Source of the DNA: Oligoflexia bacterium
GTDB taxonomy: Bacteria > Bdellovibrionota > UBA1018
Reading direction: 5' to 3'
DNA length: 23,136 bases
NCBI GenBank assembly: GCA_043732485.1
Contig: JAYTHP010000226.1
Location: 1-23,136, forward strand
In this document: one piece after another, positions 15,166 to 15,438 of the stretch
Position numbering within the stretch: the first letter of the stretch is position 1
Layout: the number at the start of each line of letters is the position of its first letter
Notes under the pieces: generated by a model
Told to the model about the DNA's origin: nothing
The model's database searches: none
What the model saw: only the letters and a program-made list of their open reading frames with translations
Made by a program: the position numbers and the translations under genes

Positions 15166-15438
15166 ATGGGATTACGCATTCATCCGGCATCGTCCGAACT
15201 GTCCTCGTCCACTCCTCTCAAACTCTCTGAGGCAACTGAGCGGTCGCAAGACCTACCGCCTGGCGTGTTAAGCGAGCTGTCCTTTCTGGCGCTCGAGCTG
15301 CAGGAAACTTCCTCGACCGTCCAGGGGTTGGAGAAGCACCTCGGACAGTTGCAAAATCGCTTGCAACTGATTGTCATGAATGGAAATCTCATTCAGGAAA
15401 ATCAAGAAGCGGCCCAGAGTCGCAGGCTACAGTGGTAG
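15166..15438 (+). CDS. Mini-flagellin / internally deleted flagellin-like protein (90 aa)
   Basis: SD AAGGA (15151-15155) then ATG 15166; begins MGLRI like flagellin 2 and ends LGQLQNRLQLIVMNGNLIQENQEAAQSR, colinear with LGAMQNRLQATINNLAITDENLSAANSR. Could also be a pseudogene remnant. Confidence 0.7.
   Translation: MGLRIHPASSELSSSTPLKLSEATERSQDLPPGVLSELSFLALELQETSSTVQGLEKHLGQLQNRLQLIVMNGNLIQENQEAAQSRRLQW

Follow-up and report, generated by a model that had tools for sequence, protein, structure and literature searches.

A cut-down third flagellin of an Oligoflexia bacterium as a candidate ligand of FliW

The flagellin array and its third slot

The window, by which we mean the whole stretch of 23,136 nucleotides that was analyzed, carries an array of two full-length flagellin genes followed by a short open reading frame, here called the mini-flagellin, and by an RmlD-like gene (cf. 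Table 1). An earlier interpretation made from the letters of the DNA (the sequence-only reading) had described the short frame as the third gene of a flagellin array, 90 amino acids long and with a clean frame, and this description was borne out, since the gene lies behind two full flagellins and its frame is open.

Table 1. Features of the flagellin array and of the mini-flagellin gene (positions in the window)
Feature	Position	Strand	Description
Sigma-28-like promoter motif (CTCAAG...CCGAT)	12188..12213	+	ahead of the array; putative operon start
Slot-1 full-length flagellin, 282 aa	12429..13277	+	Pfam Flagellin_N and Flagellin_C; GGA leader
Slot-2 full-length flagellin, 278 aa	13951..14787	+	Pfam Flagellin_N and Flagellin_C; intact GGA-rich leader
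Weak SD-like AAGGA	15151..15155	+	ahead of the mini-flagellin frame
Mini-flagellin frame, slot-3 flagellin remnant	15166..15438	+	90 aa; MGLRI start, TAG stop
MGLRI, native flagellin start	15166..15180	+	GTATG context, that of slot-2 and slot-3 genes
Degenerate N-part, residues 6-49	15181..15312	+	weak match to N-terminal D1 helix
Best-kept C-terminal D1 helix	15340..15423	+	residues 59-86 = flagellin 208-235 = Hag 235-262
Predicted FliW-contacting stretch, residues 71-88	15376..15429	+	predicted centre E78, N79 (codon 15400-15402), A82
RmlD-like gene	15605..16507	+	conserved anchor downstream of the array

The RmlD-like gene is present in 53 of 60 family genomes and was used as an anchor for the comparison of all 53 upstream regions. 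Three flagellins were found in 38 of these loci, so that relatives do carry a full-length flagellin at this place, a finding that the sequence-only reading had named in advance as counting against its proposal; two flagellins were present in 10 loci, one in 4, and none in 1. Contig ends cut all five loci with one or no flagellin and one of the ten with two, and there are thus nine true two-flagellin arrays, in which one gene has been cleanly lost and the surviving gene is closest to the slot-2 genes. Slot 3 is therefore dispensable, as these nine loci have two flagellins only, and slot-3 genes are also more drifted than those of slot 2 (0.86 vs 0.905 to the consensus). Since flaB of the window is slot-2-like, the mini-flagellin is a remnant of slot 3. 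No mini-flagellin occupies the array position in any of the 53 family loci, and the nearest flagellins with a start (n = 50) are all 277 to 287 amino acids long. The layout was identical in the 72 metagenome loci wherever these were long enough. The genome has five full flagellins in total; several, partly redundant flagellins are described as normal for Bdellovibrio (PMC2791853).

Some neighboring features deserve mention in their own right. The fixed position of the RmlD-like gene 3' of the array might, speculatively, reflect a link to flagellin glycosylation. A 116-aa gene with a weak RAMA-like match (11827-12177; E 0.08) immediately precedes the array in most family loci, with about 50% conservation, and usually adjoins a divergent GNAT gene (10664-11797 in the window). 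On one metagenome contig (L168:748-1546), the slot-2 flagellin is spread over two frames, which may be an assembly error.

The array is preceded by a motif that we take to be a sigma-28-like promoter, and such promoter-like motifs are common before slot 1 (25 of 36 loci) and rare before slots 2 and 3 (4 of 38 and 2 of 38, respectively). This distribution suggests that slots 1 to 3 form one operon and that the mini-flagellin would be co-transcribed from the sigma-28-like promoter. Scans for sigma-70 promoters and terminators, and for the strict TAAA-N-CCGAT pattern, stayed at chance level. The 80-nt leaders of the family flagellins contain GGA motifs, which we presume to be CsrA sites (family means of 3.9, 5.2, and 4.7 for slots 1, 2, and 3; range for slot 3, 1-7), and the conserved leader of slots 2 and 3 is likely a multi-site CsrA operator common to the family, with the slot-2 flagellin of the window as a putative CsrA target. 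In the same 80 nt, the two full flagellins of the window have three and four GGA motifs and the mini-flagellin has two, its leader pattern being largely gone. Hence, of the ribosome-binding site previously ascribed to the short gene, an AAGGA is indeed there, but it is weak and the GGA-rich leader of the slot has been eroded. Upstream regions of slots 2 and 3 in L048-L100 (about 13880-13950 in the window) show three to four conserved GGA hairpin/SD motifs. Two intact flagellins on another contig of this genome (G000 C166:1359-3640) have no GGA-rich leader, and among 270 flagellins, the longest terminal branch belongs to one of them.

A genuine, flagellin-derived reading frame

The mini-flagellin frame is genuine and derived from a flagellin. 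Its residues 45-86 align without gaps with residues 194-235 of the neighboring flagellin at 38% identity, a score equaled by none of 5000 shuffles, which agrees with the earlier claim that the MGLRI start and the C-terminal D1 helix are kept. Furthermore, an HMM of the C-terminal D1 region, built from 70 flagellin segments with the mini-flagellin excluded, retrieved it at 25.3 bits (E 3.8e-5 genome-wide). The protein had already been called in a public protein collection, where its cluster has a size of one. The 90 codons contain no in-frame stop and no frameshift, although the gene is shorter than its orthologues through truncation. A start at the ATG at 15052, further upstream, would lengthen the product to 128 amino acids, but the codon score of this extension is noncoding (-0.48).

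In two runs of a second study, contigs spanning 15108-15383 and 15396-15975 showed four differences and no indel, and because of this agreement, we do not regard the short gene as an assembly error. Three of the differences lie inside the frame, i.e. E22Q and P31T, both in the N-part, and one synonymous change (depth 2-7). The stretch is also contained in one piece in two runs, which are possibly the source runs.

A Pfam search of the mini-flagellin matched neither Flagellin_N (PF00669) nor Flagellin_C (PF00700), and a D0 tail was undetectable downstream in every frame (91 of 200 shuffles scored as well), so the view that the protein stops before the C-terminal D0 tail was upheld. A frameshifted tail was likewise ruled out, its score being matched by 91 to 124 of 200 shuffles. 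The proposed lack of the N-terminal D0/D1 core proved right for the Flagellin_N domain and is perhaps too absolute for the remainder, because residues 2-49 resemble flagellin residues 35-96 with three in-frame gaps, a borderline trace (2-27 of 300 shuffles, depending on gap costs). As judged from this alignment, these residues may represent a degenerated part of the N-terminal D1 helix and not unrelated filler. A single-sequence structure model gave one helix (32-89), with residues 1-31 non-helical and of low confidence, and a PDB search placed flagellins on top, though only at E 0.04-0.06. By homology and array position, the protein belongs with structural flagellins; since both domain tests fail (PF00669, and PF00700 with the D0 tail), it is not one.

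Same-length orthologues downstream of flagellins in relatives, which had been suggested as a check, were not found. The query alone was recovered among 1.84 billion representatives and, at 49-158 aa, among 5.8 billion clusters; none of 467 candidates from metagenome contigs or of 345 from GTDB contigs was confirmed. In 74 family genomes, the flagellin-type matches belonged to full-length frames or abutted contig ends, and the same held in 40 relatives for the 150 of 160 matches listed. The best score in the ESM Atlas was 0.76, a lead only. A profile search for independent mini-flagellins covered 48 family genomes, and the 11 short frames inspected all run into contig edges, with a 195-aa frame (G022:C403) left out. 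Across loci, short frames made up 42 of 370 profile matches, comprising 40 at edges, the split flagellin of L168, and noise in L022. The mini-flagellin is thus at most a novelty of one lineage, known from a single species.

Decay or upkeep of the frame

The first alternative to be weighed is that the gene is a decaying remnant, i.e. that a slot-3 flagellin drifted at full length under relaxation and then suffered deletions, its frame and motif being functionless leftovers. We consider this unlikely. As there was no orthologue, indirect simulations were used in place of dN/dS. The codon score of the mini-flagellin (0.20) compares with 0.17 ± 0.10 for genes and -0.18 for intergenic DNA, and when flaB was left to decay neutrally, the frame stayed open with a score of this kind in 2.9% of runs at 0.2 substitutions per site, in 0.7% at 0.3, and in 0.2% at 0.4 (0.02-2.9% over the range 0.2-0.5), which makes this combination improbable at the observed divergence. 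Decay also fits poorly with an N-part that is nearly erased while the C-part is kept: a single-deletion neutral model combined this pattern with an open frame in no more than 1.3% of its runs, including those started from the most divergent real flagellins. Moreover, the 42 aligned codons are free of gaps and prolines, and bacterial pseudogenes are, according to PMC2916853, usually purged fast.

The residues themselves gave a more divided answer. Within flagellin 208-235, the mini-flagellin retains nine of ten deep-invariant vs 6 of 18 variable residues (Fisher 0.005; simulated 0.008-0.012), a signal that is weakened by fairer two-phase nulls, in which any of 270 real flagellins served as ancestor with unbiased wider windows and which, with P values of 0.075, 0.089, 0.26, and 0.24, leave room for decay. 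Retention of invariant residues did not differ between the N-part and the C-part (9/19 vs 9/13, P 0.20). Within 220-238, five of the seven top predicted FliW contacts are kept vs 2 of 12 other residues (Fisher 0.029; simulated 0.028). Taken together, the indirect tests range from P 0.002 to 0.26, and their windows were picked post hoc, like the tests, which overlap, are non-independent, and model single deletions only. Decay is further favored by the outright loss of the slot in nine family loci and its relaxation in others, by the orphan status of the gene, and by the generally long branches of G000, whose rmlD-like gene has the longest of 30 and two of whose flagellins have the longest of 270. 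Two of the three polymorphisms in the frame are non-synonymous, and 3n deletions are reported to be over-represented even among pseudogenes (PMC6054270). The eroded leader points the same way; it is, however, no mark of a pseudogene, because both intact C166 flagellins of this genome are likewise without the GGA leader. On balance, we think that the frame is probably maintained.

Full-length family flagellins of 40-50% identity with odd residues in the FliW helix do exist, e.g. L230. Divergent full-length flagellins of this kind (40-50% to flaB) are found in L227 (G083:C22), L228 (G053:C66), L229 (G056:C87), and L230 (G043:C58); those of L228 and L229 are without the E-N motif of the FliW helix, which the mini-flagellin retains, and may be invisible to FliW.

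Predicted FliW binding and the possible role of the mini-flagellin

The presence of fliW in the genome, on which the sequence-only reading depended, was verified: the gene (C87:25117) is adjacent to csrA, and fliS, flhA, fliD, and fliF are present as well. The csrA product has the C-terminal Asn helix, and fliW occurs in 59 of 61 genomes of the order. At an offset of 27, N79 of the mini-flagellin corresponds to Hag N255, and the protein thereby has the conserved Asn on a helix that is common to the FliW partners (Hag N255, CsrA N55). The claim that the FliW-binding segment is kept therefore holds for this Asn and not for the N-terminal FliW patch (Hag 11-34, 50-72), which is largely lost, 11-34 being deleted and 50-72 at best degenerate.

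A model of the complex between the FliW of the genome and mini-flagellin residues 45-90 reached a predicted ipSAE of 0.88, vs 0.01 for the best of three controls; the mark used was reached by 116 of 157 solved pairs and by 2 of 215 mismatched pairs. Contacts agreed to 92% or more, and the pLDDT of the partner was 81 or higher. In the model, Asn79 sits in the pocket of FliW for the CsrA Asn, and the FliW-side contacts (25-28, 58, 108, 111, 124) coincide with the residues around CsrA N55 in Bacillus subtilis FliW, the 'CsrA N55 proximal cluster' of bioRxiv 2020.07.02.184341, and overlap the FliW regions that flagellin protects according to PMC6070490. F58, N108, A111, and Q124 are invariant across 31 FliW sequences. 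Because 70 rows of the alignment behind the model were true flagellins and the structure of a similar complex, FliW-CsrA (5DMB), has been solved, the predicted binding may reflect no more than family likeness. Retention extends beyond the predicted interface, as the LGQLQNRLQ patch outside it has been preserved too. Judged by entry codes, no FliW-flagellin entry was evident among the best 60 of 71 PDB hits.

Whether the C-terminal helix alone makes up the FliW site on flagellin is disputed in the literature. In Borrelia, the equivalent Asn is essential for FliW binding and both D0 domains are dispensable, and a model there has one FliW site for flagellin and CsrA alike (PMC12327847). In B. subtilis, FliW protects Hag 11-34, 50-72, and 240-260, and the first 60 residues are sufficient (PMC6070490), whereas Campylobacter jejuni FliW is reported to require the flagellin N-terminus and to bind without the C-terminal D1 (PMC5466977). 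As a natural 90-aa fragment with the Asn helix only, the mini-flagellin makes this dispute, C-terminal Asn helix vs N-terminus, directly testable. In L001:891-1154, an I-x-x-x-N-x-x-A spacing is common to the CsrA tail (IQEQNHEAA) and the flagellin helix, in keeping with a single FliW pocket. A general convergence of the mini-flagellin on the CsrA tail was rejected, as 70 of 270 flagellins score as high.

These findings led us to a tentative reading in which the cut-down third flagellin survives as a non-exported helix that is predicted to bind FliW and would act as its lineage-specific titrator. The decoy proposed earlier is supported insofar as fliW and csrA are present, the predicted FliW-facing residues are preferentially kept, and the model passes its controls; it is weakened by the full-length genes of relatives and the lack of an orthologue. 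Presumably co-transcribed with the two upstream flagellins from the sigma-28-like promoter, the mini-flagellin would escape CsrA control, because its GGA leader is lost, and would remain in the cytoplasm, because export would not remove a protein without D0 segments. By filling the Asn pocket of FliW, it would release CsrA onto the GGA leaders of slots 1 and 2, and the share of FliW so taken would lower the flagellin set-point rather than throw an on/off switch. The B. subtilis switch works at about 1:1:1 and is hypersensitive (PMC6529632), so even a modest titrator could have this effect, while the weak SD and the likely instability of a lone helix could keep it small. It is conceivable, somewhat more guardedly, that reduction has turned a duplicated flagellin into an antagonist dedicated to FliW, which is non-exportable and retunes FliW-CsrA apart from filament assembly, and the protein might, with similar reserve, be regarded as a natural minimal FliW ligand. 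If so, a dedicated protein decoy would join the inputs to the FliW-CsrA switch as their third kind, and the gene would be a clear example of a structural gene shrinking to a regulator, with a reach limited by its being known from one species.

The helix could instead serve another partner, being an amphipathic coiled coil that associates with itself or touches other flagellins, FliS, or the export gate, in which case the Asn motif would be incidental. This is quite unlikely: the best-kept residues in 220-238 are those predicted to contact FliW, and FlhA docking, for which the kept LGQLQNRLQ (Hag 235-243, within the FlhA-C-protected stretch 236-249) would otherwise speak, requires FliS and the D0 tail as described in PMC6070490, and the mini-flagellin has lost this tail. 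Such a role would accord with the modeled single helix from 32 to 89, with an L/V/I heptad spanning the junction in the sequence, and with a helix propensity kept above the neutral expectation (0.06-0.008). That the frame is merely a read-through spacer, kept so that ribosomes crossing the old slot protect transcription into the RmlD-like gene whatever the peptide, is very unlikely, since it leaves the residue-specific retention unexplained, nine loci manage without slot 3, and upstream gaps of 673 and 378 nt without a recognizable gene already exist, even though it would account for the open frame, the frame shares its strand with the RmlD-like gene and ends 166 nt before it, and the promoter-like motif is common only before slot 1.

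The titrator reading has its closest precedent in the Hag-FliW-CsrA switch of B. subtilis (PMC6529632; PMC6070490), with the same players, the Asn helix (N79 = N255), and GGA-rich neighbor leaders; the mini-flagellin would act as the cytoplasmic flagellin pool does there. The B. subtilis titrator is, however, a full, exportable filament protein whose export resets the switch, whereas the mini-flagellin is without D0 segments and has lost most of the N-terminal FliW patch. In non-motile Clostridioides difficile clade 5 (PMC11898703), flagellin is likewise described as a cytoplasmic regulator with no filament role; there, it is the major fliC that persists while the flagellum has disappeared, whereas the mini-flagellin is a 90-aa fragment in a genome whose export genes are intact and which has five full flagellins. 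In Caulobacter crescentus, FljJ (PMC7591256) is a diverged paralogue controlling the translation of other flagellins, but it is reported to be exported, built into the filament, and to act via FlbT rather than FliW-CsrA. Neither C. difficile FliC nor FljJ is a cut-down FliW ligand, and full-text searches of open-access PMC and bioRxiv brought up no comparable protein. The C-terminal Asn helix of CsrA (PDB 5DMB) is similar in being an Asn-centered helix for the same predicted FliW pocket, and the residue at E81 of the mini-flagellin matches in 77% of 22 CsrA tails vs 2% of 270 flagellins; unlike CsrA, the mini-flagellin is flagellin-derived and has no RNA-binding core.

Two further genes of the window were noted apart from the array. 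The reverse-strand gene at 1583-3658 encodes 691 amino acids, with a low-complexity N-terminus and numerous repeats of leucine-rich appearance, and the forward-strand gene at 17734-19605 encodes 623 amino acids, in which an N-terminal receiver domain is followed by a long low-complexity stretch and a weakly DUF2497-like C-terminus.
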